Under the pieces are notes generated by a model, which saw only the letters and a list, made by a program, of their open reading frames with translations, ran no database searches and was not told the origin of the DNA. A stretch of DNA of 34,697 nucleotides from an uncultured bacterium (lineage in GTDB: Bacteria > Lernaellota > Lernaellaia > Lernaellales > Lernaellaceae). Shown piece after piece: positions 2,595 to 32,483 of the stretch. A program made the position numbers and the translations under genes. Every line of letters begins with the position of its first letter. Within the stretch, counting starts at the first letter, position 1. The stretch covers positions 1 through 34,697 of the forward strand of contig CAZHPN010000050.1 in NCBI GenBank assembly GCA_964534375.1. Reading direction: 5' to 3'.

Positions 2595-3245
2595 CTAGAA
2601 CTCGAGCGACGTAATGCCCTCGCGCAATGCGTACTTGGTGAGTTCCGCGATGCTGGCAATGCCGAGCTTCTCGGAAATGCGCGCGCGGTGCGACTCGACC
2701 GTCTTGACGCTGACGTTGAGTTCGAAGGCGATCTCTTTCATCGTCTTGCCCTCGGCGAGCCGTTGCAGCACTTCCAATTCCCGCGCCGTGAGGATCGCGC
2801 GGGCGGACCGAATATCGCCGGAGCGTTGCACAAACTCATCGGCAATGACGTGCGACACCGCGGGCGACAAATAAATCTTCCCGGAGGCGACCACGCGAAT
2901 GGCCTTCGCCAACTCTTCGGCGGCCGAATCTTTTAATAGATAGCCGCAGGCGCCGGCGCGCAGCATGTCCGCGACAAAGCGGCGGCTGGCGTGCATCGAG
3001 AGCGCAAGCACTTTGATATTCGGGTCCAGGTCGCGAATCTTCTGCGCCGCGTCGATGCCGTTGAGCCCGGGCATCGAAATGTCCATGACCGCGACGTCCG
3101 GCCGCAATTTCTCCACCATCTGCAGCGCGCACGTCCCGTCCTGCGCTTCGCCGACAACGGTAAAACCGGCCTCTTTCTCGAGCAACGCGCGCAGTCCGTC
3201 GCGCACAATCTGGTGATCGTCAGCCAGGAAGATGCGAATTTCCAT
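2595..3245 (-). CDS. NarL/LuxR-family two-component response regulator
   Basis: REC (LADDH, VAVMDISMP, LSMH, YLLKD) plus LuxR-type HTH (LTARELEVLQRLAEGKTMKEIAFELNVSVKTVESHR). Confidence 0.95.
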   Translation of the reverse strand: MEIRIFLADDHQIVRDGLRALLEKEAGFTVVGEAQDGTCALQMVEKLRPDVAVMDISMPGLNGIDAAQKIRDLDPNIKVLALSMHASRRFVADMLRAGACGYLLKDSAAEELAKAIRVVASGKIYLSPAVSHVIADEFVQRSGDIRSARAILTARELEVLQRLAEGKTMKEIAFELNVSVKTVESHRARISEKLGIASIAELTKYALREGITSLEF

Positions 3246-3588
3246 CGTGTGTTACCTGCGAAATCGCTTGTCCGCGATCGATTGAACGCCCCACGCGGTC
3301 TTATGCCTTTTTCGCCGATGAATTACAAGCCCCGGCCAAATAGCCCTTTTCCGGCCGAATCTGCCCGACGCAGCGCCATGACAGCGCGTGTTCACACAGC
3401 GAGGGTTGGTCTGATGATCTTGACTGTTGGACGAATCCAGCCTCGCGAATTCCCGTTCTCTTCCGAAGACGCTTCTGCCGGCGATCCGGTTGAACCTTGG
3501 TGTAATAACTAAACTAACGGTCGAGATGCCGCGAGAAACCCATGGCCGTAACCATTCAAATTGCCTGCGATTTCGCCAAAGAAAGGAA

Positions 3589-3617
3589 TTGACGTTGCCC
3601 ATTCGCTCGCGTATAGT
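3589..3617 (+). promoter_or_regulatory. sigma70-type promoter upstream of the PilZ-thioesterase-methyltransferase operon
   Basis: TTGACG (3589-3594), 17 nt, TATAGT (3612-3617). Confidence 0.65.
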
Positions 3618-3748
3618 CCCTTTTGTAGCAGGGAAACGGCTTTTCATTCATTCACTTGGCAAACGGCGAGGGAGGATTCGTTCGTTACTGACTGAAAATA
3701 AAGCGCGGGCCTGGGCGACGGCTTGGGGGAGCAACTCGGGAGAGGCAC

Positions 3749-4045
3749 GTGGCTGAATTGCAAGAAAAAGCGCTGGGCCCCGGGGGCGGCGGCCGGCGCG
3801 GCAAAGTGCAATGTTCGTTGGGGCAAGTCACGCCGGCGTTCTTCGCGCCGGTCAGCGGAATAGTTAACGATGGAGACACTTCGGTTAGGGCGCGTGCGAC
3901 GCGCATCGATATCCGGCCGCGACATCCGTTGACGGCCGGGCCCGAATCACCTTGGGACTTCAACACGGCGCTGCGCTATCAGATCGTCGCGAAGACGATG
4001 ACGATTGGCCGGAACAGCGCGCGCAGGAGTATTTTTCGTGGCTAA
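3749..4045 (+). CDS. Possible upstream ORF / hypothetical protein (98 aa)
   Basis: GTG after GGGAGAGG; its stop overlaps the likely start of the next gene (GTGGCTAA); no recognisable motif. Confidence 0.2.
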   Translation: MAELQEKALGPGGGGRRGKVQCSLGQVTPAFFAPVSGIVNDGDTSVRARATRIDIRPRHPLTAGPESPWDFNTALRYQIVAKTMTIGRNSARRSIFRG

Positions 4046-7000
4046 CGTGGCGGAGAAGAAATTTGCCGCGGGGTGGGCCGGTTTGCGCAGCGAGTTGCGC
4101 CGTTCGATACGGCGGCAAACGCTCGCGGAAGCGGTCGTAACGGACGCTGCGGGCGACGCGCGCGAGGCGCTCGTCACCAGCATCAGCGTCGAAGGGGCCT
4201 ATCTCAAAACGGCCGGCGTCCTCGAACTTGGCAGCCGGCTGACATTGACCTTGACGCTGCCGACGGGGTGGCGACGCCCGATCCGCTTGGCCGGCCGCGT
4301 GGTGCGCGTCGACGATGACGGGGCGGCGATCCGCTTCGAAGACGTGAATTCGCGCGACCGCAGCAAGATCCGCGAATATTCGGCGTTTGTCGAAATGGAC
4401 GCCGTCTTTGTCGACTTGCAGCATTCGTTGCGCGGTCAGGTCGCGGGCAACCTGCTGCCGGTCAGCGAGCCGCAATTGCTGCGCGAGCGCTTGCAGGCGG
4501 CCGCCGAGCGCGGGTTGCCGGTCATGGTGATCGTTTCGGTGAAGAGCGATCGCGTGCTCCACGCCCGCTTGGCCCTGGAGCGCGACGGCCTCTTCCTGGC
4601 CGACATCGAGGGACATCTGCCGGCGGACACGCGGGTCGTTTATTGCGTCGTCGCCGACGGCCCGCTGCACACCGCGTTCGAGGGCCTCATCCTTGACGAG
4701 AACGGCCGCCGGCGGCTGATTCTGCCCGAGCGCCTATACCACAACGAACGCCGGGGTTGCCAACGCGAAGCCGTGTTCGACAGTTGGCTGACAATCGAGG
4801 CTCCGCATTTGACCGACGCGGAAATCCGTTTGCCGGTCGTCGATATCAGCGAAACGGGCTGCGCCGTCGTCGTGCCGAAGGCCGGGCTCGTCGCGCCGGG
4901 CATGCGCTTGCCGGCCTTCCGGCTGCATCGCGGCGCGACGGCGCTGGACCGTCAGGGGGCCACGGTGGCGCGGATCGCGTCGCGCGACATCGAGAGCCTG
5001 CTGCTGGGCCTGAGCTACCTCGATCAGACGGCGGATCGCGACGCGTTCGAGCAGATCCGGAACCGGTCGCTGCGGTCGAATTTGTGGAGTTCGATGTTGC
5101 GCCTCGGCGGCGCCGCGCGGCAAAAGCTGGCCGGGTTAATGACGTCAAAAAGTGCGGTGGTTCGCGAACAGGTCTTCGTCGTTCGCTACAAGAACAGCCG
5201 GGGCGACATGGTCGTGGCGTTGTTGGACGCCACATTCGATCTGCGCGAGGACCCGCCGCCGGTCGACGTGGCCGTGTTGATCGGGCCGCCGTTTCCGATT
5301 CGCAAGGAAGTCTTCGGCCTGCTGGCGCGCACGTTGATTGATAATTTCCGGCGCCAGGGGTTGAACGCGGTCGTCCTGCGTTTCGATCTGACCCATTGCC
5401 TGGGCGAGAGCCAGGCGGATCCGGAAATGGTCGCCAAAGGGCATCCGTTCCTCCGCTGGACGTACTCGCATCTGGAAGCGGACATGCTGGCCAGCCTCGC
5501 GTATCTCGAACGTCGCTTCCGCCCGGCCAAGCGCGTCCTGACGACGTACTCGGTCGCCGCCATTCCGGCCCGCCGGTTGCTCGCCGACGGCCCGAAGCCG
5601 CCGGTCGATCTGTTCATCGCGCCCTTCGGCTGTCCGGACGGGCAAGACATGCACAAGAACTACCTCGCCGGCGTCGACCTGTTCCCGTTCTACCTCCGCG
5701 GCGAGAAGGCCGAGCCGTTCTTGATTTACGGCCGGCTGGCGGATCCGAGCTACGTCATGCCGGACGCCATGCGGCGCGGCATGGCCTTCCTCGAAGACGC
5801 GCGCAACGATATGACCAAGATCACCATTCCCGTGGTCTGGTTCGTCGGCACGTACGACTATATGGTCACGCGCGAGCGCGTCCGGCAGATGTTGAACGCG
5901 CCGGGCGGCGGCGTGCGCGAAATTTTCGAATTGGCCACGGGGCATAATCCGAAGGTCGGCCCCGAGGCGATCGAATCGTTCAAGCTGATCTACGAATCGA
6001 TCGCCAAGCATCTCTTCGGCGTCGCCCAGCCGGCGATCGAACCGGACCTCGCGCTCTTTGCCCGGCAAAACGAAGCCGAATGGGCGCGCACCAAGCGCAA
6101 GACGTTCAACAACGCGACGGAATTCTGGAACCGCCACATGTTCGGCACGTCGGACGAAAAGGAAGGCTACGACGTGCTGCTCTACAACCCGACGTACGTC
6201 GATTTCCTCAACCAGCAGGCGGGTCTGCTCGACGTCCATCCGGGGCAGCGCGTGGCCGACATCGGCTGCGGCACGGGCAATTTGTCGGTTGCGCTGTTGC
6301 GCAATCTCGACCTGCAAGGCCAGCCGTTGGAATTGACCTGCCTGGATCTGCTGCCCAAAGCCATCGATTGCGCGCAGAAGAAAATCGCCGCGGTGGTCGC
6401 GGATTCGAGCGACGCCTGGCGGCGCGTCGAATTGCGCTGCCGCGCCATCGATCTCGAAGCGGCGCGGCTGCGGCCGTGGCGCGATTTCATCGACGGCAAG
6501 TTGTACGGGCCGGCGGCGCTGATCGGGCGCCTCGAGGGCCTGCCCGCGTCGACCATCCGCAAGTTTGCCGAGGGATACGGCCAGGAATTTCACGGCATCC
6601 TGCGCGGCGAGCCGGCGACGCTCGAACGCGTGCGCGAACTGCGGCCCGACCTGGACGAGGTCGAAGCCGAAATGACGCTGGATTTATCGCGGGTCAGCCG
6701 CTTCCTCCAAAACGAATTGCTGACCGACGACCTGGTGTCGGGCGCGGCCGAGGCGGCAAGCGCCGCCGACCTGCGCCTGCGCCAGCTCGATTTCGGCCGC
6801 GCGAACCGGGCGTGCGGCTTCGATTTGCCGTCGGGCGCTTTCGATCGCATCGGCGGCTCGCTGATCCTGCCGTACCTTTACGATTCGCCGAGCGTGCTCG
6901 CGGAACTTTACCGCTTGCTGGCGCCGGGCGGCGTGATCGTGCTGTCGAGCCTGAAGCCGAACTTCGATCAATCGAAGTCGTACATCGAGGAAGCCGAGAC

Positions 7001-7241
7001 GATCGCGAAGCGAACGGATTTGAGCGACCTTGAGCGCGAACGCCTGCTGGCCAGCTTGCGCGAGTTCGGGGCGTTCGTCGGCAACGTGATGGAATTGGAA
7101 GAGGAAGGGCGTTTTCGCTTTTTCACGGGCGAAGAATTCGTGCAGGCGATTCGCGCGGCCGGTTTCGTCGAGGCGCGCGCCTACGAGGGCTTCGGCGATC
7201 CGCCGACGGCCGTCATCGTGCGCGCGGTGAAGGGCGGATGA
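4038..7241 (+). CDS. Multidomain protein: PilZ + YcgR-N-like + PilZ + LuxD-like alpha/beta acyl-thioesterase + class I SAM-dependent methyltransferase
   Basis: PilZ1 RRSIR...SISVEG; PilZ2 RRGCQR...DISETG; hydrolase RFDLTHCLGES, TYSVAA (Ser), GTYDYMV (Asp), ATGHNP (His); MTase VADIGCGTGNL, CLDLL, FDRI, LLAPGG; GTG at 4038 lies 8 nt after AGGAG (ORF track uses TTG 4005). Confidence 0.85.
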   Translation: MANVAEKKFAAGWAGLRSELRRSIRRQTLAEAVVTDAAGDAREALVTSISVEGAYLKTAGVLELGSRLTLTLTLPTGWRRPIRLAGRVVRVDDDGAAIRFEDVNSRDRSKIREYSAFVEMDAVFVDLQHSLRGQVAGNLLPVSEPQLLRERLQAAAERGLPVMVIVSVKSDRVLHARLALERDGLFLADIEGHLPADTRVVYCVVADGPLHTAFEGLILDENGRRRLILPERLYHNERRGCQREAVFDSWLTIEAPHLTDAEIRLPVVDISETGCAVVVPKAGLVAPGMRLPAFRLHRGATALDRQGATVARIASRDIESLLLGLSYLDQTADRDAFEQIRNRSLRSNLWSSMLRLGGAARQKLAGLMTSKSAVVREQVFVVRYKNSRGDMVVALLDATFDLREDPPPVDVAVLIGPPFPIRKEVFGLLARTLIDNFRRQGLNAVVLRFDLTHCLGESQADPEMVAKGHPFLRWTYSHLEADMLASLAYLERRFRPAKRVLTTYSVAAIPARRLLADGPKPPVDLFIAPFGCPDGQDMHKNYLAGVDLFPFYLRGEKAEPFLIYGRLADPSYVMPDAMRRGMAFLEDARNDMTKITIPVVWFVGTYDYMVTRERVRQMLNAPGGGVREIFELATGHNPKVGPEAIESFKLIYESIAKHLFGVAQPAIEPDLALFARQNEAEWARTKRKTFNNATEFWNRHMFGTSDEKEGYDVLLYNPTYVDFLNQQAGLLDVHPGQRVADIGCGTGNLSVALLRNLDLQGQPLELTCLDLLPKAIDCAQKKIAAVVADSSDAWRRVELRCRAIDLEAARLRPWRDFIDGKLYGPAALIGRLEGLPASTIRKFAEGYGQEFHGILRGEPATLERVRELRPDLDEVEAEMTLDLSRVSRFLQNELLTDDLVSGAAEAASAADLRLRQLDFGRANRACGFDLPSGAFDRIGGSLILPYLYDSPSVLAELYRLLAPGGVIVLSSLKPNFDQSKSYIEEAETIAKRTDLSDLERERLLASLREFGAFVGNVMELEEEGRFRFFTGEEFVQAIRAAGFVEARAYEGFGDPPTAVIVRAVKGG

Positions 7242-9847
7242 ACGACGAAAAGACGCTAGCAGTCGAGGCCAATCCGCAGTTCCGCGAGCGATTGCATCAA
7301 GAGCGGCAGGAACTCCTTATCACCCGCTATCGTTTATTGCTGATTGTCGCCTGCTTCGTCTACCCTTCGTTCCTGGGCCTCGACGCCATCGACTGGCGCC
7401 CGTTCATCGGGACCTTCGCCGTCATTCGCGCCGTGGTCGTCGCCAATTATCTGGTCTGCCTCGCCCTGCTCTATACGAAATTCGGCCGGCGCATCGCGTT
7501 GCCGTTGTCGATGTGGGGCATCTTCGCCTCCGAGGGCGGCATCGCGGTGATGACCGTTTATCAGGGCGGCTTCACCAGCGTCTATTACATCGGCATCGTC
7601 CTGGCCGTGTTCGTCGCCGGGTTGTTCTTGCCGTGGCGGGCGACGACGACCGGGTTGAGCGGCCTCTTCTGCATGGTCAGCTATTTCCTGGTCAACGTGC
7701 GGTTCGCGCCGCCGGCGAACTGGTCGTGGTCGACCGTCGTGACGCCGCTGTTTTTCATGGGCGGCGGCATCGTGTTGACGTTGTTCTCCAACGTCGGCCA
7801 GGAGCGCTCGCGCCGGCGCGACCTCGCCTTGCGGATGCAGATCGAGACGGCGAACGAGGAGCTCAAAGAACTCGACAAAACCAAAATGCGCTTTTTCTCC
7901 AACGTCAGCCACGAATTGCGCAGTCCGCTGACGTTGATTCTCGGCCCGTTGGAAGCGATGCTCAGCGCCCAGCCGCCGGCCGACCCGCGGCCGCTGCTCG
8001 AGGCGATGGACAGCAACGCCCGCCGGCTCTTGCGGCAGGTGAACACCCTGCTGGATTTCGCCAAGATCGACGCCGGCAAGTTGGAGTGCAAATTCGCGTT
8101 CGGGAATATCGGGCGGCTCCTGGAAGAACTTTTTCGCGCGACGCGGCCCCACACGGAGCGTCGCAAGATCGACCTGACCATCGACGGCGCCGACACGATT
8201 CCGGATTCCATCCTGGATCAAAACAAAGTGGAGACGATCGCCGCCAACCTGATCTCGAACGCCGTGAAGTTCACGCCCGCCGGCGGCAAGATCGCCATTC
8301 GCGCGAGCTTCGACGAAGAACGCATTTCGTTCGAAGTCGAAGACTCGGGCAGCGGCATTCCCGAAGATCAGATCGATTTGATATTCGAGCGGTTCCGCCA
8401 ACTCGACGATGCGCTGTCGCGCCGCGCCGAGGGTACGGGCCTCGGCTTGTCGATGGTCAAGGAACTGACGGCCCTGCACGGCGGCCGCGTCATGGTGCGT
8501 TCGAAGGTCGGGGTCGGCACGACGTTCACGATCGAGTTGCCGCGCCGGCCCGAGCAGAAACCGATCGACCGCCGGCGGATCATCGGCCGCCGCAAAGTCG
8601 ACCAGATGGCGCAGGAGCGCACGATCTCGATGCTTGGCGCCGAGCAGGAACAACGGTCGGGCGCCAAAACGCTGCTGGCGGATGTCGTCACCTCCAAGCT
8701 CGGCGGCGGCGTGCTGATCGACCAGGAGATCAAACAGTTGGCCCCGGCGGATGCGCAGAAGGTGCTCGTTGTGGACGACAACCCGGACATCCGCACGTTC
8801 ATGGCCAGCAACCTCGCGACCGATTTTCGCATCGCGCTGGCCGGCGACGGCGTCGAGGCGTTGGAGGTTGCGCGTCGTTTCCAGCCGGATCTGATCGTCT
8901 CCGACATCATGATGCCGCGGATGGACGGCTACGAACTTTGCCGGCAGATCCGCCAGGACAAGACGCTCGGCCAGATCCCGATCATCCTGGCGACTTCCAA
9001 GTCGGGCGGCGAGGCCGTGGTCACGGGCCTGGAGACCGGCGCCAACGATTACCTCGCCAAACCGTTCGAGATCCGGGAACTGAAGGCGCGCGTCGCGGCG
9101 CAGTTGCGCGCCCATCGCCTCGAACGAAGCCTGGGCGAGCGTGAAAGCCGGCTGGCCGCGATCGGCCAGATGACCAGTTCGATCGTCCACGACTTGAAGA
9201 ACCCGCTCAACACCATTGTCGGCTTCGCCGAAATCGCCCGGGAGGACGCCGCCGCCGCGCAGAGCAAAGACCTCTTGCAAGACGTCGAGCCGATCGTCAG
9301 CGAGGCCAAGCGGCTCGGGCGGATGATCGCGGAGGTGTTGGATTTCGCCCGCGGCTACAGCGCCAACCTCAAGCTGGAGCCGACGCCGCTGGGGCCGTTC
9401 TTGAACATGGCCGCGGCGCCCTGGAAAACCAAGTTGGAGCAAATGGGCGTGACGTTCACCGTCGATCTGCGCATCGCGGACACGCTGAAAATCGATCTCG
9501 ACGCCGACAACATGATGCGCATCGTGGAGAATCTGTTGAAGAACTCCCTGGAGGCGTTGTGCGGCGAAGGCCGCGACCCGCGGGGCAAGCACGTCTGGCT
9601 GTGCGCGGAAGCGGCCAACGGGACCGTGTCGGTCCGCGTGGCCGACGACGGCCCGGGCATCCGCGAGGAAATCGCCGGGCGGCTGTTCGAACCGTTCGCG
9701 ACGGCCGGGAAAAAGTCCGGCACGGGCCTCGGCCTGGCGACCGTGCGCAATTTGGTCAAGGCGCAGAACGGCGACATTGCGGTCACGCCGACGGCCCCGG
9801 AAGGCGGCGCGGCGTTCGTGATGACGTTCCCCCGCAAGGAAGATTGA
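7238..9847 (+). CDS. Membrane hybrid sensor histidine kinase with two transmitter modules (TM-HisKA-HATPase-REC-HisKA-HATPase)
   Basis: About 5-6 hydrophobic helices; H-box SHELRSPL, NLISNAVKFT, DSGSGI, GTGLGL; REC VVDDNP/SDIMMP/LAKPF; second H-box VHDLKNPL, NLLKNS, DDGPGI, GTGLGL; ATGA overlap with the upstream stop. Confidence 0.93.
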   Translation: MNDEKTLAVEANPQFRERLHQERQELLITRYRLLLIVACFVYPSFLGLDAIDWRPFIGTFAVIRAVVVANYLVCLALLYTKFGRRIALPLSMWGIFASEGGIAVMTVYQGGFTSVYYIGIVLAVFVAGLFLPWRATTTGLSGLFCMVSYFLVNVRFAPPANWSWSTVVTPLFFMGGGIVLTLFSNVGQERSRRRDLALRMQIETANEELKELDKTKMRFFSNVSHELRSPLTLILGPLEAMLSAQPPADPRPLLEAMDSNARRLLRQVNTLLDFAKIDAGKLECKFAFGNIGRLLEELFRATRPHTERRKIDLTIDGADTIPDSILDQNKVETIAANLISNAVKFTPAGGKIAIRASFDEERISFEVEDSGSGIPEDQIDLIFERFRQLDDALSRRAEGTGLGLSMVKELTALHGGRVMVRSKVGVGTTFTIELPRRPEQKPIDRRRIIGRRKVDQMAQERTISMLGAEQEQRSGAKTLLADVVTSKLGGGVLIDQEIKQLAPADAQKVLVVDDNPDIRTFMASNLATDFRIALAGDGVEALEVARRFQPDLIVSDIMMPRMDGYELCRQIRQDKTLGQIPIILATSKSGGEAVVTGLETGANDYLAKPFEIRELKARVAAQLRAHRLERSLGERESRLAAIGQMTSSIVHDLKNPLNTIVGFAEIAREDAAAAQSKDLLQDVEPIVSEAKRLGRMIAEVLDFARGYSANLKLEPTPLGPFLNMAAAPWKTKLEQMGVTFTVDLRIADTLKIDLDADNMMRIVENLLKNSLEALCGEGRDPRGKHVWLCAEAANGTVSVRVADDGPGIREEIAGRLFEPFATAGKKSGTGLGLATVRNLVKAQNGDIAVTPTAPEGGAAFVMTFPRKED

Positions 9848-9919
9848 GCGGGGCGGCGCCGGCGTCGGCCGGAGGGCCGCTCTTCTCATTCCGTCGCGAC
9901 TGCTGTATTAAAGGACGCG

Positions 9920-11002
9920 ATGGAATCCAAAAGCCGAATCCTGATTGTCGACGACGAGGAGATGAACCGCCGTTTGCTCGGCACGTTCCTGCAACGGCTC
10001 GGCTACGAGACGAGCGAGGCCGGCGACGGCGTCGACGCGTTGGAAAAAGTCAAAGCCGCGCCGCCCGACATCATCCTGATGGACATTCAGATGCCGCGGA
10101 TGAACGGTCTGGACGCGACGAAACGATTGAAAGAAGACCCGGCGACGCGGGGCATTCCGATCGTCATCGTCTCGTCGACGGCCGATCTCGAACCGCGGGT
10201 GCAGGCGCTGGAAAACGGCGTCGACGATTTCCTGGCAAAACCGGTGGACCGCACCGAGTTGCGCGCGCGGGTGCAATCGCTGCTGAAGGTGAAGGCGTAC
10301 AACGATCAGCAGCGTTCTTATCAAAAAACCCTCGAGGAAGCGGTGGCCCAACGCACGGACCAGTTGCGCCGCGCGTTCGACGATCTCAAGGGCGCCAACG
10401 ACCGGCTGAAGAAGGCCTCGCTGGACACGATCTTCCGCCTGGCGCAGGCGGCGGAATACAAAGACCGCGACACCGGCAACCACATCAAACGCATCGGCTA
10501 TTACACGGCGACCGTCGCCCGCGAACTTGGCCAAAGCGAGATGGAAATCGAGGCGATCCTCTACGCGGCGCCGATGCACGACATCGGCAAAATCGGCATC
10601 CCGGATCGGATCTTGTTGAAGCCGGGCAAGCTCGACCCCGACGAATGGGAAATCATGAAGCAGCATTCCCAGATCGGCAGGGATCTGCTGCACGGCTCCG
10701 ACTCGGCCCTGCTCAACATGGCCGAGACCATCGCCCTGACGCACCACGAGCAGTGGGACGGCAGCGGCTATCCGCAGCAATTGCGCGGCGACGAGATTCC
10801 GCTGGTCGGCCGCATCACCGCCATCGCCGACGTCTTCGACGCCCTCACGTCCAAACGCCCGTATAAAGGCCCGATGCCGACGGACGACGCGCTCGCGATC
10901 CTGCGCGAGAAACGCGCCGTGCATTTCGACCCGCAAGTCGTCGACGCTTTCTTCGGCGCGATCGAACGCATCAAAGAAATCCGCAACGGCTGGTCGGACT
11001 GA
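9920..11002 (+). CDS. RpfG-like response regulator, REC + HD-GYP c-di-GMP phosphodiesterase
   Basis: REC (IVDDE, LMDIQMP, LAKP) plus HDIGK, HHEQWDGSGYP, ADVFDAL, RPYK. Confidence 0.93.
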   Translation: MESKSRILIVDDEEMNRRLLGTFLQRLGYETSEAGDGVDALEKVKAAPPDIILMDIQMPRMNGLDATKRLKEDPATRGIPIVIVSSTADLEPRVQALENGVDDFLAKPVDRTELRARVQSLLKVKAYNDQQRSYQKTLEEAVAQRTDQLRRAFDDLKGANDRLKKASLDTIFRLAQAAEYKDRDTGNHIKRIGYYTATVARELGQSEMEIEAILYAAPMHDIGKIGIPDRILLKPGKLDPDEWEIMKQHSQIGRDLLHGSDSALLNMAETIALTHHEQWDGSGYPQQLRGDEIPLVGRITAIADVFDALTSKRPYKGPMPTDDALAILREKRAVHFDPQVVDAFFGAIERIKEIRNGWSD

Positions 11003-11073
11003 GAACGCGCCCGGCGGGCGATTTCTACGCCGCCTTTCACCGCGCTTGATTAATCGACTCCGGCAAGGGAACA

Positions 11074-11099
11074 TGGCGCGCCGTGAATTCGGCGCGCCA
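11074..11099. other. Perfect 10-bp stem-loop upstream of tldD
   Basis: TGGCGCGCCG-tgaatt-CGGCGCGCCA; no U-tract, so not a classical intrinsic terminator. Confidence 0.4.
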
Positions 11100-11122
11100 C
11101 ATTACCGACGGGGGATCTCGCG

Positions 11123-12667
11123 ATGAACGACACCCATGACGCCGCGGGCGGCTGCCGCATGACCCGCCGCGAATTTCTGCAGACGATGGCGGCCACCAGC
11201 CTGCTGGCGGGCCTGCCGACCGGCGCGGCGGCCGCGCTGGCCGCGGACCGGCCCGCGCTCGGCGGGCTCGGGCTCGACGCGGATTTCTTGAGCAAGCTGC
11301 TGTCGATCGCCATGTCGCGCGGCGGCGAATTCGCGGAAATCTACGTGCAGGACGCCCTGCTGTCGGATATCGCCCTCGACGACGGCAAGATCCGCAGCGC
11401 CTCGGTCGGCGCCAGCCGCGGCGTCGGCGTGCGCGTCATCAAGGGCCTGAAGGTCGGCTACGCGTATTCCGACGACTTCTCGCCCGAGGCCCTGCGCCGC
11501 ACGGCCGACACGGCGGCGTTGATCGCCGGCGGCCAAGGCTCGTGGACGCCCGTGCCGCTGCGGCCGGAGATGGCGCGACCGCTGTCGCCGAAGCGGCTGC
11601 CGTTCGCCGAGGCGCCGGTCGAGAAGAAAACGGCCATCGTGCTGGCGATGGACGCGGCGGCGCGGCAGTACGACCCGCGCGTCAAGCAGGTCTTCGGCCG
11701 CCTGGCCGACACGGCCGTCTACCGCCTGGTCGCCAACACCGAGGGGCTTTTGGCCGAGGACCACGACGCGCTGGTGCGGGCGGCCGTGCAACTGGTCGTC
11801 AGCGACGGCAAAGATCGCCGCACCGGCTTTTTCGGCGGCGGCGGGCGCGTGGGGACGGAGCATTACGACGCGTTCTCGCCGGAGCTGATCGCGCGCACGG
11901 CGGCCAAATCGGGCCTCGCGATGCTGGGCGCGGTCGACGCCAAAGCCGGCGAGCAGTCGGTGGTGCTCGCCAACGGCTGGAGCGGCATCCTGCTGCACGA
12001 GGCGATCGGGCACGGCCTCGAAGCGGATTTCAATCGCAAAAAGACGAGCCTTTATTCGGGCCGCATCGGGCAGAAGGTCGCCAGCGAATTGTGTACGGTG
12101 ATCGACGACGCGACGCTGGCCAACCGGCGCGGCTCGATCAACATGGACGACGAGGGCGCGGCGCCGCAGCGCAAGGTGCTGATCGAAAAAGGCGTGCTCC
12201 GCGGCTACATGTTCGACCGGCTCAACGCCAAACTGATGGGCCAGGGCTTCCAGTCGACGGGCAGCGGCCGGCGCGAAAGTTTCCGGCACTATCCCCTGCC
12301 CCGCATGTCGAACACGTTTCTGGCGCCGGGCGAGCACACGCCGGATGAGATTATTCATTCCGTCAAAAAGGGCCTCTACTGCAAGATGTTCGGCGGCGGC
12401 CAGGTGGATATTGCCAACGGGCAGTTCGTCTTCGAAGTATCCGAGGCGTACCTGATCGAAGACGGCAAGCTCACGGCCCCGGTGAAGGGCGCGACGCTGA
12501 TCGGCATCGGGCCGAAGGCGCTCGAGCAGGTGTCGCTGGTCGGAGCCGACGCCGAACTCGATCCGGGCATCGGCACCTGCGGCAAAGACGGGCAATGGGT
12601 GCCGGTGGGCGTGGGGCTGCCGCACGTGCGGCTCGACAACATGACCGTCGGCGCGGCGAAGGCGTAG
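11123..12667 (+). CDS. tldD: TldD metalloprotease subunit with twin-arginine signal peptide
   Basis: LLHEAIGHGLEAD (HExxxH), DDEG, PRMSNT, C-terminal CGKDGQ; N-terminal TRREFLQ + hydrophobic stretch + ALA. Confidence 0.93.
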   Translation: MNDTHDAAGGCRMTRREFLQTMAATSLLAGLPTGAAAALAADRPALGGLGLDADFLSKLLSIAMSRGGEFAEIYVQDALLSDIALDDGKIRSASVGASRGVGVRVIKGLKVGYAYSDDFSPEALRRTADTAALIAGGQGSWTPVPLRPEMARPLSPKRLPFAEAPVEKKTAIVLAMDAAARQYDPRVKQVFGRLADTAVYRLVANTEGLLAEDHDALVRAAVQLVVSDGKDRRTGFFGGGGRVGTEHYDAFSPELIARTAAKSGLAMLGAVDAKAGEQSVVLANGWSGILLHEAIGHGLEADFNRKKTSLYSGRIGQKVASELCTVIDDATLANRRGSINMDDEGAAPQRKVLIEKGVLRGYMFDRLNAKLMGQGFQSTGSGRRESFRHYPLPRMSNTFLAPGEHTPDEIIHSVKKGLYCKMFGGGQVDIANGQFVFEVSEAYLIEDGKLTAPVKGATLIGIGPKALEQVSLVGADAELDPGIGTCGKDGQWVPVGVGLPHVRLDNMTVGAAKA

Positions 12668-12677
12668 GAGGCGAATC

Positions 12678-14027
12678 ATGGAGAAAATCGAACTGGACCG
12701 TTTGCACAAGCTGGTCGAGCAGTTGCGCCGGGCCGGCGCGGATCAAGTCGACGCCTATTACGAATGGGGCCGCAACACGAACATCAGCGCGCGCAACGGC
12801 GAGGTCGAAAACCTGAAGCAGGCGGTCAGCCAGGGCGTCGGCGTGCGCGTGTTCAAGAACCACCAACTCGGCTTCGGCTTCACCTCGGACATCTCGCCCG
12901 ACGGCCTGTCGCGCTTGGGCGAAAAGACGCTGGCGCTGGCGCACGCGACGGCGATCGACCCGAACCACGGCCTGCCCGACAAAAAATATCTGGGCCGGCC
13001 CACGAAGGCGGCCGACGCGTTCGACCCGCAGGTCGAGGCGCTCGACAACGCGACGTTGACGAAAAACGCCATCCTCATGGAAAAGGTCGCCCTCGCCGCC
13101 GACCCGCGCATCAAGACAGTGCAGGAGGTCGGCGCCGGCTGCAACGTGCAGCGCGTCGCGCTGGTCAACAGCGAAGGCTTTGCCGGCGACTACGCCAAAA
13201 CCTACGCCTGGCTGTACGCCGACACGCTCGCCGAGGCCGACGGCCAGAAGCAATCGGGGTCGTTCGTCGATCAGGCGACGCACTGGGCCGACCTGCTGGG
13301 CCCCGAGGCGGTCGCCCAAGAGGCCGCACGGCGCGGCGTGCGCACGCTCGGCGCACGGAAAATTCCGTCCGCCCAGATGCCGGTGATCTTCGAGCCGCCG
13401 CTGGTCAAGGCGTTTCTGCGCGGCCTGCTCGGCGCGCTCAACGGCGAGATGGTGTTTTTGAAAAGCAGTTTCCTCGCCGACAAACTCGGCCAGACGATCG
13501 CCTCGCCCCTGTTCACGGTCGTCGACGACGGCGGCCTCGACCGCCGCTCGGGCAGCCAGCCGTTCGACGGCGAAGGCCTGGCGACGCGCCGGCAGACGCT
13601 GTTCGACAAGGGCGCGCTGCGCATGTTCCTGTACGACGTCCACACCGCCAACCAGGCCGGCGCGCAACCGAGCGGCACAGCCGGCCGCGGTTACGCGGCG
13701 CTGCCCACGATCGGCTCGACCAACCTCTTTCTCGAACCGGGCGACCAGCCGCCGGCGGCGTTGCGGCGCGGCCTCGACCGGGCGCTGCTGGTCACCGACA
13801 TGATGGGCCAGGGCGTGAACACGGTCACCGGCGATTACTCGCGCGGCGCGAAGGGCTTTCTTATCGAAAAAGGCGAGATCGTTCACCCGGTGCAGGAAGT
13901 CACCGTGGCGGCGCACATGCTCGACATGCTGCGCAACATCGACATGGTGGCCAACGACATGGAGTGGCGCGGCAGCGTCGGCGCGCCGTCGATCCGGTTC
14001 GCGAAGATGACGGTCGCGGGGAAGTAG
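12678..14027 (+). CDS. pmbA: TldE/PmbA non-catalytic partner subunit
   Basis: KSSFLADKLG, PFDGEG, GVNTVTGDYSRGAKGFLIEKGEI, no HExxH; AGGAGG RBS; directly follows tldD. Confidence 0.9.
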   Translation: MEKIELDRLHKLVEQLRRAGADQVDAYYEWGRNTNISARNGEVENLKQAVSQGVGVRVFKNHQLGFGFTSDISPDGLSRLGEKTLALAHATAIDPNHGLPDKKYLGRPTKAADAFDPQVEALDNATLTKNAILMEKVALAADPRIKTVQEVGAGCNVQRVALVNSEGFAGDYAKTYAWLYADTLAEADGQKQSGSFVDQATHWADLLGPEAVAQEAARRGVRTLGARKIPSAQMPVIFEPPLVKAFLRGLLGALNGEMVFLKSSFLADKLGQTIASPLFTVVDDGGLDRRSGSQPFDGEGLATRRQTLFDKGALRMFLYDVHTANQAGAQPSGTAGRGYAALPTIGSTNLFLEPGDQPPAALRRGLDRALLVTDMMGQGVNTVTGDYSRGAKGFLIEKGEIVHPVQEVTVAAHMLDMLRNIDMVANDMEWRGSVGAPSIRFAKMTVAGK

Positions 14028-15323: not shown

Positions 15324-17796
<2,473 letters not shown>

Positions 17797-18058: not shown

Positions 18059-18961
18059 TCACGGCAGCAATCCTTTGGCGACCAGCAGGCGCGCCGCGGC
18101 GTCGGCCAGCAAGGCCGAACCTTCCTTATTAATGTGGATCGGATCGCTGTCCGGGTTGAAGAACAGGTCGGGACGACCGAGAAACTCGGGCACTAGGTCG
18201 AGCAGCACGGCGCCGGTTTCGACGGCGACGCGTTTGGTCGCGTCGATGTACGCGCGGTGCTGGTCGCGAAATTCCCACGTCCCGTCGAGGTACGGCGCCG
18301 TCGCGAAGACCGTGCGCCCGCCGGCCGCGCGGGTCATTTCCGCGATACGCAGCAGATTGTCGCGGTAGTCCGCCAGGCTGACCCGCGGCGTGCCGTTCCG
18401 TGTCGATTTCTTGATCAGCAGGGTCCGCAACAAGCGGTACACGCGGCTGCGCGCGAGGTGTTTTTGCCAGAGGAAAATCCGCGGCGGCGGCAGGCGGACG
18501 TCTTTGTCGGCGACGCCGATTTCGCTGGGCCAGTGGTCGTTCCAGCCGAATTCGGCGACGACCACGTCGGGCTCTTCGCGCAGCAACTCGCGCTGCAGGT
18601 AGAGCCGGCCCTGGAAGCTCGTGTAGCTCGGCACGCCGGCGTTGAAGACCTCGACCGGGCGGCCGTAGCCCAACTCGCGCAGGGCGTCGGGCAACAGGTT
18701 GGGCCAACCGCGGCCGTGGTCCATCACCGTGACCGAATCGGACAGGCAAATAATTTTCACGGCGCGGCCCGTGAACCGCGGCTTGATGTTGGGCAGGCGC
18801 CAGAACAGCACCGGGTCGGGCACGCCGCGCAATTCGGCGATCTCGCGGAAAAAGAAATCGGCCGGCGCGGGCGCGCCCCGATAGTCGATCGCGCGCAATC
18901 CGAGTTCCGTCGCCCCGAAGAAAGCGACCACGGCGACGAGGCTGAAGCAGACCTTTTTCAC
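18059..18961 (-). CDS. SGNH/GDSL hydrolase-family protein with N-terminal membrane anchor
   Basis: Block I ICLSDSVT, block II FNAGVPSYTS, block III EFGWND, block V DPIH. Confidence 0.88.
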   Translation of the reverse strand: MKKVCFSLVAVVAFFGATELGLRAIDYRGAPAPADFFFREIAELRGVPDPVLFWRLPNIKPRFTGRAVKIICLSDSVTVMDHGRGWPNLLPDALRELGYGRPVEVFNAGVPSYTSFQGRLYLQRELLREEPDVVVAEFGWNDHWPSEIGVADKDVRLPPPRIFLWQKHLARSRVYRLLRTLLIKKSTRNGTPRVSLADYRDNLLRIAEMTRAAGGRTVFATAPYLDGTWEFRDQHRAYIDATKRVAVETGAVLLDLVPEFLGRPDLFFNPDSDPIHINKEGSALLADAAARLLVAKGLLP

Positions 18962-18989
18962 TGTTCGCTGTTCACTGTTCGCTGTTCAC
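18955..18989. repeat. Heptamer array (TGTTCRC)x4-5 filling the gene junction
   Basis: ttttcac tgttcgc tgttcac tgttcgc tgttcac; reverse complement of the GAACAGT family. Confidence 0.9.
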
Positions 18990-21049
18990 CACCATGCCGG
19001 CGTCCGCACAAACGCCCAGAGCGCCGGCCCGCCGCGAACCGGCGTGACGCGCGCTTCGATCGTCGCCACGCCGGCGATGTTGTCCGCGACCGCGTCGTCG
19101 TTCGGCTCGGCCTCGCGAGCGCGGTCGACAGCGAATTGCGCCACGGGCACGCCGGGCGCGCCGCACACGTAGCGGAGTTGCCGGCGCAGATTCTTTTCCC
19201 ACAGCAGGGCGCCGCCGCGATCGCGGGCCGCGAGGCGCACGTCGTACGGGCCGGCGGCTTCGGGCCGCACGGTCAATTCGAACAAGACGCGGCGTTCGCT
19301 TGCCAGGGCCGGCGGCGCGAGGGCGTCGGGCCGGGCGGCGACCGTCAGCCGGGCCTCGGTCGGATGAACGACGCCCGTGCCGGTGCGATCGAGTTCCGGC
19401 TCGACGAGGCTCCACTCGGGCCACGATTCGTTGTCATAGCGGGCGGCGCCGGCCAGGCGGTAGACCGCGAATTGGCCGTTGTCGAAGGTCCGCGAGGCGG
19501 CGGGGTCCGCGGCGAGCGCCGGGAACGGGTCCGTCGGCCGCGCGGCGCCGCCGGCTTCGGCGGCCAGCGGCGCGAGCATTCCCAGCATGCCCTCCGTGTC
19601 GCGGCGGTTTTCGATCGCGACGTTCAGGCGCAGGGCGCGCATCATCGCCGGCAGCCCCTCGCGGAACATCTGCAACAGCCGCGCGCGCGGCAGGTCGAGA
19701 AAATTGGGATAATTGTCACGGCCGTGCGCGACGAAGCGGATGAAATCGCCGCTGTTCAACACGCCGCCCGTCGCGCCGGCGGACCGCACCGCCTCGACCT
19801 GCGCCATGTAGAGCCGTTCGACCCGGTCGAGATCGCCGTAGCCGGCCACCAGGCCGTACGCCGTCGCCGCCGCGACGGTCAACGCCGCGGCCGGCTCGAT
19901 CCAGACCGCCCGCCGGCGCGGCCACGCCGCCGCCAGCGCGGTCAGCGTCAATCCGGCCGCGGCGAATTCGACCAGCGCCAGCCACGGCCGGGCGTCCAGG
20001 TGCCACGACGGCCGCCACAGCCGCAGCGCCAGCAACGCCGACGCGAGCAGCGCCCAGGCCGCCGCGACGCCGCCGGCGCCCTGCTCGATGGCCCGCGCCA
20101 ATTCGCGGCCGGCGAACCACGCCGCGACCGGCAACGCCGGCAGCAGCACGCGCGGAAAATGATTGACCGGATTGAGCAGGTAGACGGCGAAAACAGCCGC
20201 CAGAAAAAGCCAGTTCAGTTGTTCGAGCGGCGTCTTCTCGCGCCGCGCCGCCGCCAGCAGCAATCCCGGCGCGAACAGCGGGATGGCCAGCCCGTGCAGA
20301 CTCACCAGGTCTTCCCAACGCGCCGACCAGATCGCCACCGCCAGGTTGAAGCGCCAATCGACTTCGTAATCGTTGAACACCGACCAATGAAATTGCGGCC
20401 AGCGCCACGCCACGGTCGCCGCTACGACGATCGCCCACGCGCCGACGGCGAGCAGCGGCGCCAGCCACCGTCGCCGGACGCGCGCCGCCGGCCGCAGATT
20501 CAGCAGCACGAACACGACGGCGGGAAAGACAAAAACCGCGGCGAAGGTCTTGCACAGAAACGCCCCGCCCCAGGCCAGGCCGGCGAACGCCCCGAGCGAC
20601 GGTTCGTCGCGCGTGACGGCGCGCGCCAGCGTCCACACGCCGAACGCGCCCAGAAACGTCAGCAGCGCGTAGGGCAATTCGCTGACGCTGAAGAACAGCG
20701 CGATCGGCGCCGCCGCGAACAGCGCCGCGGCGAAGAGGCCGGCCGGCAAGCCGCCGTCGTCCTCGCCTTCCTGCAATAAGACCAGCATGGCGCCGACGCC
20801 GGCTGCCGCCGACACAAGCCTCGCGGCCCACAGCTTGACGCCGAGCAGGCGAAACAGCACGGAAATGAGATACGTCGGCAGCGTCGCGGTCAGACTCCAG
20901 CCGGCGCCCTCGGCCTGACTGCGCGCGGCGATCAGCAGATTGGCGCTGTCGTTGTCGAACAGGCCGAACAGCGCCGGCAAGATCGCGCGCGCGGTCAACG
21001 CCGCCGCGAGACTGCACCACACCACCTGCATCGCCCGTGGGTTGGACAC
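18986..21049 (-). CDS. GT-C fold (ArnT/PMT-like) polytopic membrane glycosyltransferase
   Basis: Acidic loop after TM1 (FDNDSANLLIAAR), ARLVSAAAG, SELPY, AFLCKTFA, many TM helices, soluble C-terminal domain; start uncertain (GTG 21049 or ATG 21031). Confidence 0.75.
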   Translation of the reverse strand: MSNPRAMQVVWCSLAAALTARAILPALFGLFDNDSANLLIAARSQAEGAGWSLTATLPTYLISVLFRLLGVKLWAARLVSAAAGVGAMLVLLQEGEDDGGLPAGLFAAALFAAAPIALFFSVSELPYALLTFLGAFGVWTLARAVTRDEPSLGAFAGLAWGGAFLCKTFAAVFVFPAVVFVLLNLRPAARVRRRWLAPLLAVGAWAIVVAATVAWRWPQFHWSVFNDYEVDWRFNLAVAIWSARWEDLVSLHGLAIPLFAPGLLLAAARREKTPLEQLNWLFLAAVFAVYLLNPVNHFPRVLLPALPVAAWFAGRELARAIEQGAGGVAAAWALLASALLALRLWRPSWHLDARPWLALVEFAAAGLTLTALAAAWPRRRAVWIEPAAALTVAAATAYGLVAGYGDLDRVERLYMAQVEAVRSAGATGGVLNSGDFIRFVAHGRDNYPNFLDLPRARLLQMFREGLPAMMRALRLNVAIENRRDTEGMLGMLAPLAAEAGGAARPTDPFPALAADPAASRTFDNGQFAVYRLAGAARYDNESWPEWSLVEPELDRTGTGVVHPTEARLTVAARPDALAPPALASERRVLFELTVRPEAAGPYDVRLAARDRGGALLWEKNLRRQLRYVCGAPGVPVAQFAVDRAREAEPNDDAVADNIAGVATIEARVTPVRGGPALWAFVRTPAWW

Positions 21050-21199
21050 TGCGAACCGCCCCCGCCCGTAGAAAAAAAGGCGGGCGCATTGTATGCCATC
21101 CAACACCGCCGGGCAATTTGTCGCCGCGGTTCGAATTCGCGACGACAGGATCGCAAACTCTACGGCCGCCCGCGCGTGGCGCGCGGCCGATTATGATTG

Positions 21200-25412: not shown

Positions 25413-26528
25413 TTACGGTTTTGCCGGCGCGGGCGCCGCGGCCGGCGCGGGCGCCGCGGCCGGCGCGGTCGCCGGCGCGGCCGGGTGCGCCGGCGCGGGC
25501 GCGTGGACAGCGACCGGAGCGCCGGGCACATGCGCCGGCGCAGGCGCGACGACGGGCGCCGGCGCGGGCGCGGCGCCGGCCGCCGGCGCGTCCACCGTTT
25601 TGGCCTTCAACAGGCCGCGCATATTGAGGTTCGTGTAGACGGTCTCGGCCAGCAGCGCAAAGCCTTTTTCATTCGGGATGTAAGTCTTCTGGATCAGATC
25701 CTGCACCTGGTCGTAATCGACCACTTTGTTTCCGAAGCCGCGGACGTCGACAAAAATGCTGCCCTCCTTCCGGCCCAGCATCGCCATCGTCCGATCCACC
25801 CACGGCGAGGCGTCATCCCAATAATTGAGCAGAGCCAAAATGGCCCCGGCCTTTTTCGCTTCGGCTTGCAGCGCCTCGATATCGAGGCCCATCCACTTTT
25901 CCATGTACTCGCGTTCTTTGTCGCCGCGGACGTCGAGCGCCATGTCCCACTTCAATTGATCGAACTTCGGCGGCGTTTTGTCGAGCTTTTTCAACCGCCC
26001 GATGGTGATCGGATCGAACCCAAGGCTCTCGGCCTCGCCGGCCAGGTACTTGAACCAAACGCCCGGGTCGGAACGCCGGCTGTCTTCGGGCAAGATGCGC
26101 GCGTTGGTGAAATTGTGCGGATTATTTTTCCCGGCGTTGTAAATGATGATGGTGGGTTTGAGTTCCGACGTTTGCAGGTAATCGATGACCTTGTCCGCCA
26201 CCTGGCTCGAATTCAGGCCGCCCTGCCCGATATTGATCACGCGATACGGCGTCTCCGGGTGCTTTTGGGCCAGGATCGCGCCAAGCTGCGACGGATAGTC
26301 CAAGCCCTTCGGCACGCCCGTGCCCTCGGTGTGGCTGTCGCCGGCGCACAGGATGTGGAAATCGGCGATAAAGGTCCTAGGTCCCGGTTTATGAACATCC
26401 GCATCCAGGCCGCCGCCAAAAAGCTTTTTGCCGGCGTAGACAAAAATCGATGCGACAACGATGCCGGCCAGGACGATTACAATCGTGACGAGCATCACCT
26501 TCTTTTTCGGCGGTGCGGCTTCGTTCAT
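25413..26528 (-). CDS. SGNH/GDSL-like membrane-anchored protein with Pro/Ala-rich tail; catalytic His apparently absent
   Basis: ILCAGDSHT, INIGQGGLNS, NAGKNN; block V reads KTYIPNEKG; C-terminal PAAGAAPAPAP... Confidence 0.78.
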   Translation of the reverse strand: MNEAAPPKKKVMLVTIVIVLAGIVVASIFVYAGKKLFGGGLDADVHKPGPRTFIADFHILCAGDSHTEGTGVPKGLDYPSQLGAILAQKHPETPYRVINIGQGGLNSSQVADKVIDYLQTSELKPTIIIYNAGKNNPHNFTNARILPEDSRRSDPGVWFKYLAGEAESLGFDPITIGRLKKLDKTPPKFDQLKWDMALDVRGDKEREYMEKWMGLDIEALQAEAKKAGAILALLNYWDDASPWVDRTMAMLGRKEGSIFVDVRGFGNKVVDYDQVQDLIQKTYIPNEKGFALLAETVYTNLNMRGLLKAKTVDAPAAGAAPAPAPVVAPAPAHVPGAPVAVHAPAPAHPAAPATAPAAAPAPAAAPAPAKP

Positions 26529-29481: not shown

Positions 29482-29543
29482 CGGGCCGGTGGCTAGCTTT
29501 TCCCAACGGTCGTTCAACCGCGACGAACCGGGAGGAGAGGGTC

Positions 29544-29984: not shown

Positions 29985-29990
29985 CGGCGC

Positions 29991-30680: not shown

Positions 30681-30699
30681 TTCGGCCGCCGCGCGGCGT

Positions 30700-32397: not shown

Positions 32398-32483
32398 GAT
32401 GCGGCCTCGCAGGTGTGAGTTTCGTTTTCTGTCCGCGAACGACGGAATTAATACACGGAACGGCCGGCGCCGCCAACCCGGCC

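Follow-up and report, generated by a model that had tools for sequence, protein, structure and literature searches.

What does an enzyme make when it joins a relative of the bioluminescence thioesterase LuxD to a methyltransferase, and what is the product for? This question was raised by a gene in contig CAZHPN010000050.1 of an uncultured Lernaellota bacterium (GenBank assembly GCA_964534375.1), whose whole analysed stretch of 34,697 nt is hereafter called the window. An earlier note, made from the letters of the DNA, had placed the gene at 5170–7241 and read it as a LuxD-like acyl-acyl carrier protein (acyl-ACP) thioesterase fused to an S-adenosylmethionine (SAM)-dependent methyltransferase. 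The coding content of that interval was upheld, but its extent was not, as it represents only the C-terminal two thirds of a gene at 4038–7241. Likewise, the hydrolase and methyltransferase domains were recovered, whereas two PilZ domains in the first ~345 residues and an operon with a kinase and an HD-GYP regulator had been overlooked. Given these PilZ domains and this operon, the protein is recast here as a signalling enzyme rather than a plain metabolic one. Our overall reading, held with slightly less than even confidence, is that cyclic di-GMP (c-di-GMP) gates an enzyme in which a fatty acyl chain is first set free and then O-methylated; the resulting lipid methyl ester would be exported, and the kinase may sense it. 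The gene and its parts are as follows.

4038..7241, + strand: whole gene, encoding PilZ, middle region, PilZ, LuxD-like hydrolase and SAM methyltransferase (1067 aa from GTG 4038)
4095..4382, + strand: PilZ domain 1 (PilZ1), aa 31–126 (Pfam PilZ, E 3.1e-14; R32xxxR36; the [D/N]xSxxG motif reads S59-I-S61-V-E-G64)
4383..4739, + strand: middle region between the PilZ domains, aa ~127–245 (no Pfam match at E ≤ 10; conserved among close homologues)
4740..5039, + strand: PilZ domain 2 (PilZ2), aa ~246–345, boundaries approximate (R250xxxR254; D280-I-S282-E-T-G285; two Pfam PilZ stretches)
5166..6101, + strand: LuxD-like alpha/beta-hydrolase (acyl-thioester hydrolase/acyltransferase) domain, aa ~388–699 (AlphaFold model, match to 1THT, profile alignment, PF02273 relatives)
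5550..5552, + strand: Ser516, the putative nucleophile, whose elbow T-Y-S-V-A differs from GxSxG (conserved as Ser in 147 of 151 sequences; aligns to LuxD Ser114)
5856..5858, + strand: putative triad residue Asp618 (Asp in 150 of 151; aligns to LuxD Asp211)
5943..5945, + strand: putative triad residue His647 (His in 150 of 151; its equivalent in the relative P0228 aligns to LuxD His241)
6114..7238, + strand: class I SAM-dependent methyltransferase domain, aa ~704–1078 (Pfam Methyltransf_12/25/11/31/23 above cut-offs; model)
6258..6281, + strand: SAM-binding motif D-I-G-C-G-T-G-N, aa 752–759 (GCGTGN invariant in 105 of 105 homologues)
6453..6836, + strand: helical insertion of ~128 aa within the methyltransferase fold, aa ~817–944 (model secondary structure; absent from a ~820-aa sister clade)

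The + strand open reading frame (ORF) is listed at 4005..7241, open from TTG 4005, and residue numbers (protein P0001) are counted from this TTG. GTG 4038 is likely the start of the gene because AGGAG lies 8 nt before it and a database gene call of 1067 aa begins there. The window's own genome (94% complete) holds one copy. All five peptides quoted in the earlier note fell in the one frame of this ORF, i.e., LIGPPFPIRKEVFGLLARTL (5277–5336), VLRFDLTHCLGES (5373–5411), LTTYSVAAIPA (5538–5570), FVGTYDYMV (5841–5867) and ELATGHNP (5928–5951). The putative triad codons were also where it had put them (TCG for Ser516, GAC for Asp618 and CAT for His647), with spacings of 102 and 29 residues.

The LuxD-like domain and its methyltransferase partner

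The central domain, modelled with AlphaFold from 78 homologues, adopted a canonical alpha/beta-hydrolase fold (predicted local distance difference test score [pLDDT] 90.5, predicted template modelling score [pTM] 0.90). In a Foldseek search of this model against PDB, the top match was LuxD of Vibrio harveyi, a myristoyl-ACP thioesterase/acyltransferase (1THT; E 7.7e-16, TMq 0.73, TMt 0.81), followed by feruloyl esterases (E 7.5e-14, TMq 0.64). VIA-align against representative structures also ranked 1THT first (Z 28.6, root-mean-square deviation 3.0, 279 of 293 residues aligned), the next matches reaching Z 24.9 with 244–253 aligned residues. LuxD was thus the closest fold in two programs, cap region included, and the structural comparison called for in the earlier note returned the protein that it had named and not an unrelated hydrolase class. 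Other fold matches of this domain were the methylesterase RdmC (VIA-align, Z 18.9) and the thioesterase DcsB, the latter in both programs.

At the sequence level, the identity to LuxD was ~16%, and the window protein reached neither the Pfam nor the NCBIfam LuxD models. A profile of 33 central domains matched 1THT below the threshold (E 0.34), placing Ser516 on Ser114 and Asp618 on Asp211. In the case of P0228, 1THT was the sole PDB sequence match (E 0.0078); this alignment begins just after the nucleophile and sets Asp and His on Asp211 and His241. Ser114, Asp211 and His241 are taken here, as in the earlier note, to be the catalytic residues of LuxD. The two proteins are therefore alike in fold and in triad positions with similar spacing, and neither has a GxSxG elbow, although the residues differ (A-A-S-L-S in LuxD vs. 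T-Y-S-V-A here). The triad was invariant in 79 aligned homologues and was kept in 147 (Ser516), 150 (Asp618) and 150 (His647) of 151 sequences, comprising 150 listed representatives and the window protein. In the same 151 sequences, K434-E435, R459-x-D461 and G467-E468-S469 were as fixed as the triad. Because at least 168 homologues exist (90% clustering) and these residues are invariant in 79 of them as aligned and nearly so in 151, the triad is not a chance observation.

The Pfam searches gave a less direct picture. No Pfam family covered the central ~310 residues, and only sub-threshold matches to Hydrolase_4 (E 0.037) and FSH1 (E 0.21) were obtained, both in the C-terminal part. The proposed comparison with LuxD and its Pfam family Acyl_transf_2 (PF02273) was therefore borne out by structure but not by a Pfam row for the window domain, which itself fell short of the gathering cut-off of 20.3 bits. 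Among 34 distant relatives sampled across lengths from the 460 clusters of our profile search, 14 matched PF02273 at E ≤ 1e-3 and nine exceeded the cut-off, with a best score of 40.6 bits. Because only distant relatives reach PF02273, the homology to the LuxD family is transitive rather than direct. Even so, the central domain is genuinely, if remotely, related to the LuxD family; its triad is intact and its elbow departs from GxSxG. Judging from its sequence and model, it is predicted to hydrolyse an acyl thioester (acyl-ACP or acyl-CoA).

The fold and the remote homology are also all that speaks for an ordinary LuxD, i.e., the transferase subunit of a bioluminescence fatty-acid reductase. 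The earlier note had seen no lux genes nearby, and this was confirmed: no luxC-like match was present near the gene, and no LuxE match was found in the 94%-complete genome. LuxC-family matches were partial (~90 of 401 profile positions) and located on other contigs, and the same family matched 9 of 14 control genomes; the co-occurrence of luxC and luxE that marks the lux fatty-acid reductase was thus not observed in this genome. The best score with the NCBIfam LuxD equivalog (cut-off 420 bits) was 40.9, in relatives only, and the locus titles give as hosts metagenome-assembled genomes (MAGs) of Desulfobacterota, Acidobacteriota, Myxococcota and Planctomycetota. Unlike LuxD, the domain is fused to a methyltransferase and usually to PilZ, and it never stood free among the best 150 representatives; the six without a methyltransferase match are fragment-like. 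We give this explanation a practically negligible probability, and a role in bioluminescence was rejected given the lack of LuxE and the partial LuxC-family matches on other contigs.

The fusion to a SAM methyltransferase, as claimed previously, was supported by Pfam scores above the respective cut-offs (Methyltransf_12, 38.8 vs. 30 bits; Methyltransf_25, 35.7 vs. 27; Methyltransf_11, 34.1 vs. 21.2). The Pfam match ran from ~745 to ~1054 and was split by the large insertion; for example, Methyltransf_23 spanned 746–1054 for a profile of 164 positions. Together with the Rossmann-type fold of the model (pLDDT 88.7) and the GxGxG loop, these matches identify a class I SAM methyltransferase. Its fold matches were mixed small-molecule methyltransferases with no stand-out (CmoA with Z 19.7, OxaG, TmtA, Coq5, CouO and RebM). 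Its ESM Atlas features fell into unnamed or generic methyltransferase clusters only, and a tblastn search of a short family member against plasmids returned only generic methyltransferases covering ≤ 45% of the query.

The two catalytic domains travel together. A search of 1.84 billion cluster representatives with the hydrolase-domain profile yielded 460 clusters (50% identity) at E ≤ 1e-3. The form of ~1070 aa, to which the window protein belongs, accounts for at least 168 clusters at 90% identity. A sister clade of ~820–840 aa is ~30% identical, with at least 493 proteins matching one member (90% clustering), and consists of one canonical PilZ domain (invariant RxxxR and DxSxxG), the LuxD-like domain and a methyltransferase without the insertion. 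Both catalytic domains were present in 144 of the best 150 of the 460 representatives, and the remaining six had no methyltransferase match and fragment-like lengths. The hydrolase and methyltransferase are therefore an obligate couple, almost always under PilZ.

PilZ domains and the linked kinase and HD-GYP genes

The N-terminal part connects this couple to c-di-GMP. Pfam PilZ matched at 53.6 bits (cut-off 22.5) in two stretches within the first ~345 residues, and the PilZ motifs were conserved over 105 full-length homologues. PilZ2 has the complete motif set and corresponds in alignments to the one PilZ domain of the sister clade, whereas PilZ1 of the window protein has it only in part. From these motifs, the two PilZ domains are predicted c-di-GMP receptors.

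Two genes for signalling proteins follow the enzyme gene.

7238..9847, + strand: hybrid histidine kinase with six hydrophobic segments (aa 30–186), HisKA-HATPase, receiver and a second HisKA-HATPase (Pfam, hydropathy)
9920..11002, + strand: response regulator of the HD-GYP (c-di-GMP phosphodiesterase) type with both signature motifs, HD and GYP, intact (Pfam Response_reg and HD_5/HD; translation)

The stop codon of the enzyme gene overlaps the start codon of the kinase gene in the ATGA at 7238–7241. The hydropathy profile of the kinase indicates six membrane segments, none of them joined by a large periplasmic loop. No convincing terminator was found inside the three-gene cluster in a scan of 3200–11300; the same scan detected two promoter-like sites upstream (3391–3418 and 3589–3617) against 1.1 expected from shuffled sequences, and the scan as a whole is weak evidence.

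This arrangement was conserved among related loci. For the clade of the window protein, 58 related loci were compared, of which 53 had ≥ 600 nt downstream and 38 had enough flanking sequence to look for the HD-GYP gene. A homologue of the kinase, with its order of transmembrane segments, histidine kinase, receiver and second histidine kinase (TM-HK-REC-HK), was located directly downstream of the enzyme gene in 53 of 53 loci. A full REC-HD-GYP gene was present in 33 of 38 loci, upstream in 23 (Acidobacteriota) and downstream in 10. For the sister clade, 80 metagenome loci were compared, and 26 of them had ≥ 3.5 kb of downstream flank. In these 26 loci, the kinase was found in 25, an MMPL-family RND transporter (Pfam MMPL, E 1e-27 to 1e-29) in 18, and at least one of the two in all. 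No HD-GYP match was obtained in any of the 80 sister-clade loci. The constant presence of a membrane sensor kinase next to the enzyme suggests that the enzyme's product may be a lipid methyl ester acting as a signal.

The gene context also bears on a role as a tailoring enzyme for a natural product other than a fatty acid, in which an acid resembling a polyketide or a peptide would be released from its carrier protein and then methylated, the product not acting as a signal. Thioesterase and methyltransferase chemistry is common in natural-product pathways, and the fold matches include CouO, RebM, MitM and NovO for the methyltransferase and DcsB for the hydrolase. However, no polyketide synthase, nonribosomal peptide synthetase or carrier-protein genes were seen adjoining the gene in the window. 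The recurrent neighbours in the 138 related loci, searched with the window's own neighbours and MMPL as the only queries, were signalling and transport genes, and almost all family members have the PilZ fusion and the linked kinase. We consider this role highly improbable.

Candidate mechanism and its alternatives

Two known signalling systems resemble the cluster in different respects. In Ralstonia, the methyltransferase PhcB makes methyl 3-hydroxy-myristate or methyl 3-hydroxy-palmitate, and its operon is ordered phcB-phcS (kinase)-phcR (receiver and kinase domain)-phcQ (receiver) (PMC8578825). There, as here, the methyltransferase gene comes first and is followed by genes for a sensor kinase and receiver-containing proteins (PMC8578825), the likeness being one of layout. 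The TM-HK-REC-HK kinase of the window corresponds in its domain order to PhcS and then PhcR. This double-kinase layout is unusual, resembles a PhcS-type kinase fused to a PhcR-type receiver-kinase, and is kept in both clades. In contrast to the Phc system, the methyltransferase here is fused to its own thioesterase and PilZ domains, the output is an HD-GYP phosphodiesterase instead of PhcA control, and the hosts belong to other lineages. No PhcB-named protein occurred among the named or annotated family matches, which were not lists aimed at PhcB, and the available portions of the literature on PhcB with thioesterase or acyl carrier protein contain no statement of a hydrolase domain in PhcB.

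In the Xanthomonas Rpf system, which uses the diffusible signal factor (DSF), RpfF, which acts as an acyl-ACP thioesterase, makes a signal derived from fatty acids out of acyl-ACP, and RpfC and RpfG together perceive it (PMC7912708). RpfC is a multi-transmembrane hybrid kinase and RpfG a REC-HD-GYP protein that lowers c-di-GMP (PMC7912708, PMC5391125 and PMC4159695). The same combination of a multi-transmembrane hybrid kinase and REC-HD-GYP architecture is found in the window. In contrast, RpfF has a crotonase fold and does not methylate, whereas for the putative synthase here a c-di-GMP receptor function is predicted. Where RpfC has an HPt domain, the kinase of the window has a second kinase module. 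Because no crotonase/ECH family appeared among the Pfam rows of the cluster genes, and hence no RpfF-type synthase, only the kinase and REC-HD-GYP half of the Rpf system is paralleled. By analogy, the cluster looks like a blend of Phc and Rpf in which the synthase would additionally be a c-di-GMP receptor.

Gating of catalysis by a PilZ domain also has precedents. In the cellulose synthase BcsA and in Alg44, a canonical PilZ domain is fused to or packed against an enzyme, and c-di-GMP gates catalysis (10.1101/814665). These are membrane glycosyltransferase systems, whereas a soluble hydrolase-methyltransferase with two PilZ domains is predicted here.

Starting from what was directly observed (the domain make-up, the LuxD-type fold, the conservation of the triad, SAM and PilZ motifs, and the gene linkage), we infer c-di-GMP binding, a substrate, a product, an order of reactions and a signal-sensor relation as follows. 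c-di-GMP would bind the PilZ domains and gate catalysis. The LuxD-like domain would transfer the acyl chain of acyl-ACP or acyl-CoA to Ser516 and then release it, as suggested by its fold and homology. The fused methyltransferase would then cap the freed carboxylate as a methyl ester, as suggested by the fusion and by precedent; methylation of the carboxylate is proposed because it is the simplest chemistry that makes the hydrolase and methyltransferase consecutive. The hydrophobic ester would leave the cell, aided by MMPL where present, and would be sensed by the translationally coupled six-transmembrane hybrid kinase. Finally, the REC-HD-GYP regulator would turn the kinase output into c-di-GMP breakdown, resetting the PilZ-gated synthase and closing the loop. 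Regarding the separate parts of this mechanism, the product is probably an exported lipid-type molecule, while sensing of that product by the neighbouring kinase is possible but is proposed with marked reserve. The earlier note had gone as far as a one-polypeptide fatty acid methyl ester synthase, which we also infer and do not state more firmly because nothing here identifies the methyl acceptor.

Several observations weigh against this mechanism. Regarding the gate, position 59 of PilZ1 (codon 4179–4181) is Asp or Asn in 104 of 105 homologues, and the window protein alone has Ser; because Ser59 replaces Asp/Asn, the PilZ1 site may bind c-di-GMP more weakly in this protein. Regarding the hydrolase, PF02273 gave no row for the window domain at E ≤ 10, and a genome-wide search at the same threshold missed the gene. 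Regarding the methyltransferase, its model is about equally close to C-, N-, S- and O-methyltransferases. The NCBIfam rows cover the methyltransferase only, with none on the central hydrolase domain: BioC (TIGR02072) scored 35.4 bits against a cut-off of 184.95, over residues 748–817 only and far from equivalog membership, and the fatty-acid O-methyltransferase Mtf2 (NF045825) scored 15.6 bits against 400, in the SAM-binding region only. Mtf2 and BioC, the latter a malonyl-ACP O-methyltransferase, are likewise class I enzymes acting on carboxyls of fatty-acyl substrates, but their families lack both the 128-aa helical insertion and the fusions. Fold, NCBIfam and ESM Atlas comparisons accordingly gave no methyl acceptor, and computation does not point to one because the fold matches have no stand-out and the NCBIfam scores are far under their cut-offs. 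Regarding the loop, the HD-GYP gene was unlinked in 5 of 38 loci, including that of Desulfoluna limicola. An MMPL gene follows the kinase gene in only 2 of the 58 window-clade loci (L046 and L048), and the window's cluster has no exporter gene. Moreover, a kinase that does no more than regulate the enzyme via c-di-GMP, while sensing an unrelated cue, would account for the enzyme-kinase linkage just as well.

This last point leads to a c-di-GMP effector that remodels the cell's own lipids and produces no signal. The hydrolase would pull acyl chains from lipid synthesis or from a lipid, the methyltransferase would modify a lipid, and the kinase would monitor the membrane or an unrelated cue and act only via HD-GYP. 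The same domain evidence applies, and the simplest path through the operon is linear, from the kinase through REC-HD-GYP and c-di-GMP to the PilZ enzyme. In addition, MMPL transporters also move structural lipids, and an exporter is absent from the window's cluster. However, the enzyme-kinase pair was kept without a linked HD-GYP gene in the five window-clade loci mentioned above and in the sister clade, where none of the 80 loci gave a match, which argues for a relation more direct than a shared second messenger. The exporter beside the enzyme in 18 of 26 sister-clade loci also better fits a released product. Remodelling without a signal is therefore regarded as clearly unlikely.

A further explanation is a cycle of methylation and demethylation, in which the methyltransferase would methyl-esterify a carboxyl group of either a small molecule or a protein (possibly the kinase) and the hydrolase would cleave the ester again, with c-di-GMP setting the balance. 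Alpha/beta hydrolases include methylesterases, RdmC was among the fold matches at the Z score given above, and BioC/BioH is a comparable pair, as are CheR/CheB and LCMT-1/PME-1. BioC was the best NCBIfam row, the Joint Genome Institute (JGI) label on several homologues is 'pimeloyl-ACP methyl ester carboxylesterase', and the strict linkage would suit an enzyme that modifies the kinase. In contrast, LuxD was the best match by a clear margin, and the relatives matched the LuxD Pfam family and no methylesterase family. The BioC score is far under its cut-off, and the label used by JGI reflects a generic COG name. In a protein-modification cycle the MMPL linkage would have no role, and, unless the two activities were gated reciprocally, fusing the writer to its eraser would be futile. 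Such a cycle is thus very unlikely in our assessment.

Returning to the proposed mechanism, its widest form is that the protein is the signal synthase of an unrecognised and widespread type of cell-cell signalling by lipid methyl esters in environmental bacteria of the Desulfobacterota, Acidobacteriota, Myxococcota and Planctomycetota. As one polypeptide, the synthase would draw an acyl chain from fatty-acid synthesis and methylate it; it would be switched by c-di-GMP and paired with a six-transmembrane kinase as the sensor, and HD-GYP or, in the sister clade, MMPL would complete a loop tying quorum-like sensing to c-di-GMP. In this full extent the proposal is somewhat unlikely.

Distribution, neighbouring genes and implications

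The ~1070-aa form occurs in Desulfobacterota, Myxococcota, Acidobacteriota (Thermoanaerobaculia and Holophagales) and Planctomycetota, in MAGs according to the locus titles. Its distribution is patchy: the gene was found in 6 of 41 genomes including the window's own, namely in four of seven other genomes of the same family, one of nine others of the same class and none of 24 more distant ones. A cultured carrier with a complete genome is Desulfoluna limicola ASN36 (DSLASN_30670). At this locus (L012; 11–6975 and 15691–19219), the enzyme-kinase pair lies between a Wadjet defence system (JetA, DUF4194, JetC-like and JetD) and HipA-fragment/integrase genes beside smpB. Because the pair is flanked by the Wadjet system and by integrase/HipA remnants beside smpB, this suggests that it is carried on a mobile genomic island at the tmRNA region.

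Some family members deviate from the standard layout. Representative P0264 (1182 aa) has a receiver domain ahead of the PilZ domains, and because of this domain some versions of the enzyme may take direct phosphorylation input besides c-di-GMP. One locus (L002, 10001–10963) is interrupted by a single in-frame stop codon in the linker that immediately precedes the hydrolase domain, and another (L057, 10001–11002) has several frame breaks within the hydrolase domain; these may be assembly errors or decaying copies.

Other genes in the window were less constant. A spacer of ~790 nt (3246–4037) parts the enzyme gene from a divergent gene for a NarL-type regulator, which is not conserved in the related loci. 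No Rfam family was detected across the window at gathering scores, nor in this spacer at E ≤ 1. A TldD/PmbA metallopeptidase gene pair (11123–14027) directly follows the three-gene cluster, and genes for S-adenosylhomocysteine (AdoHcy) hydrolase (15324–16583) and SAM synthetase (16636–17796), both on the − strand, are ~8–10 kb from the SAM-consuming enzyme. At E ≤ 1e-10, neither these genes nor the two upstream ORFs were matched in any of the 58 related loci. A functional link to the SAM-cycle genes was therefore rejected, and their nearness is probably a coincidence because it is not conserved in those loci. Farther along, 18059–21106, 25413–26528 and 28426–33045 hold further genes related to lipids or the envelope, namely two GDSL-type lipase/acylhydrolases, a PMT_2 glycosyltransferase, a gene like 3-ketoacyl-ACP synthase III (KAS III) and a large acyl-CoA-dehydrogenase-like gene.

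The source annotations of the family are generic, e.g., 'UbiE methylase / pimeloyl-ACP methyl ester carboxylesterase' and 'PilZ domain-containing protein'. A protein combining PilZ, hydrolase and methyltransferase domains was not described in the full-text literature searched or in the available parts of two PilZ surveys (10.1101/814665 and 10.1101/2020.02.11.943704), subscription journals and supplements being outside the scope of this search. The parts are each of a known kind, while their combination and operon appear to be undescribed in a family that is widespread.

If the proposed mechanism is true, it would provide a candidate function for a large uncharacterised family and a new type of c-di-GMP effector, i.e., a PilZ-gated pair of lipid-modifying enzymes. 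To our knowledge, fatty-acid methyl-ester signalling has so far been tied to Ralstonia, and we know of no chemical communication system in the phyla concerned here; the mechanism would then point to such signalling in these phyla. The natural one-polypeptide thioesterase-methyltransferase would also be of interest for the microbial production of fatty acid methyl esters, in line with the biotechnological interest named in the earlier note. For the biology of the family, the strict enzyme-kinase pairing offers a matched pair of candidate synthase and receptor.

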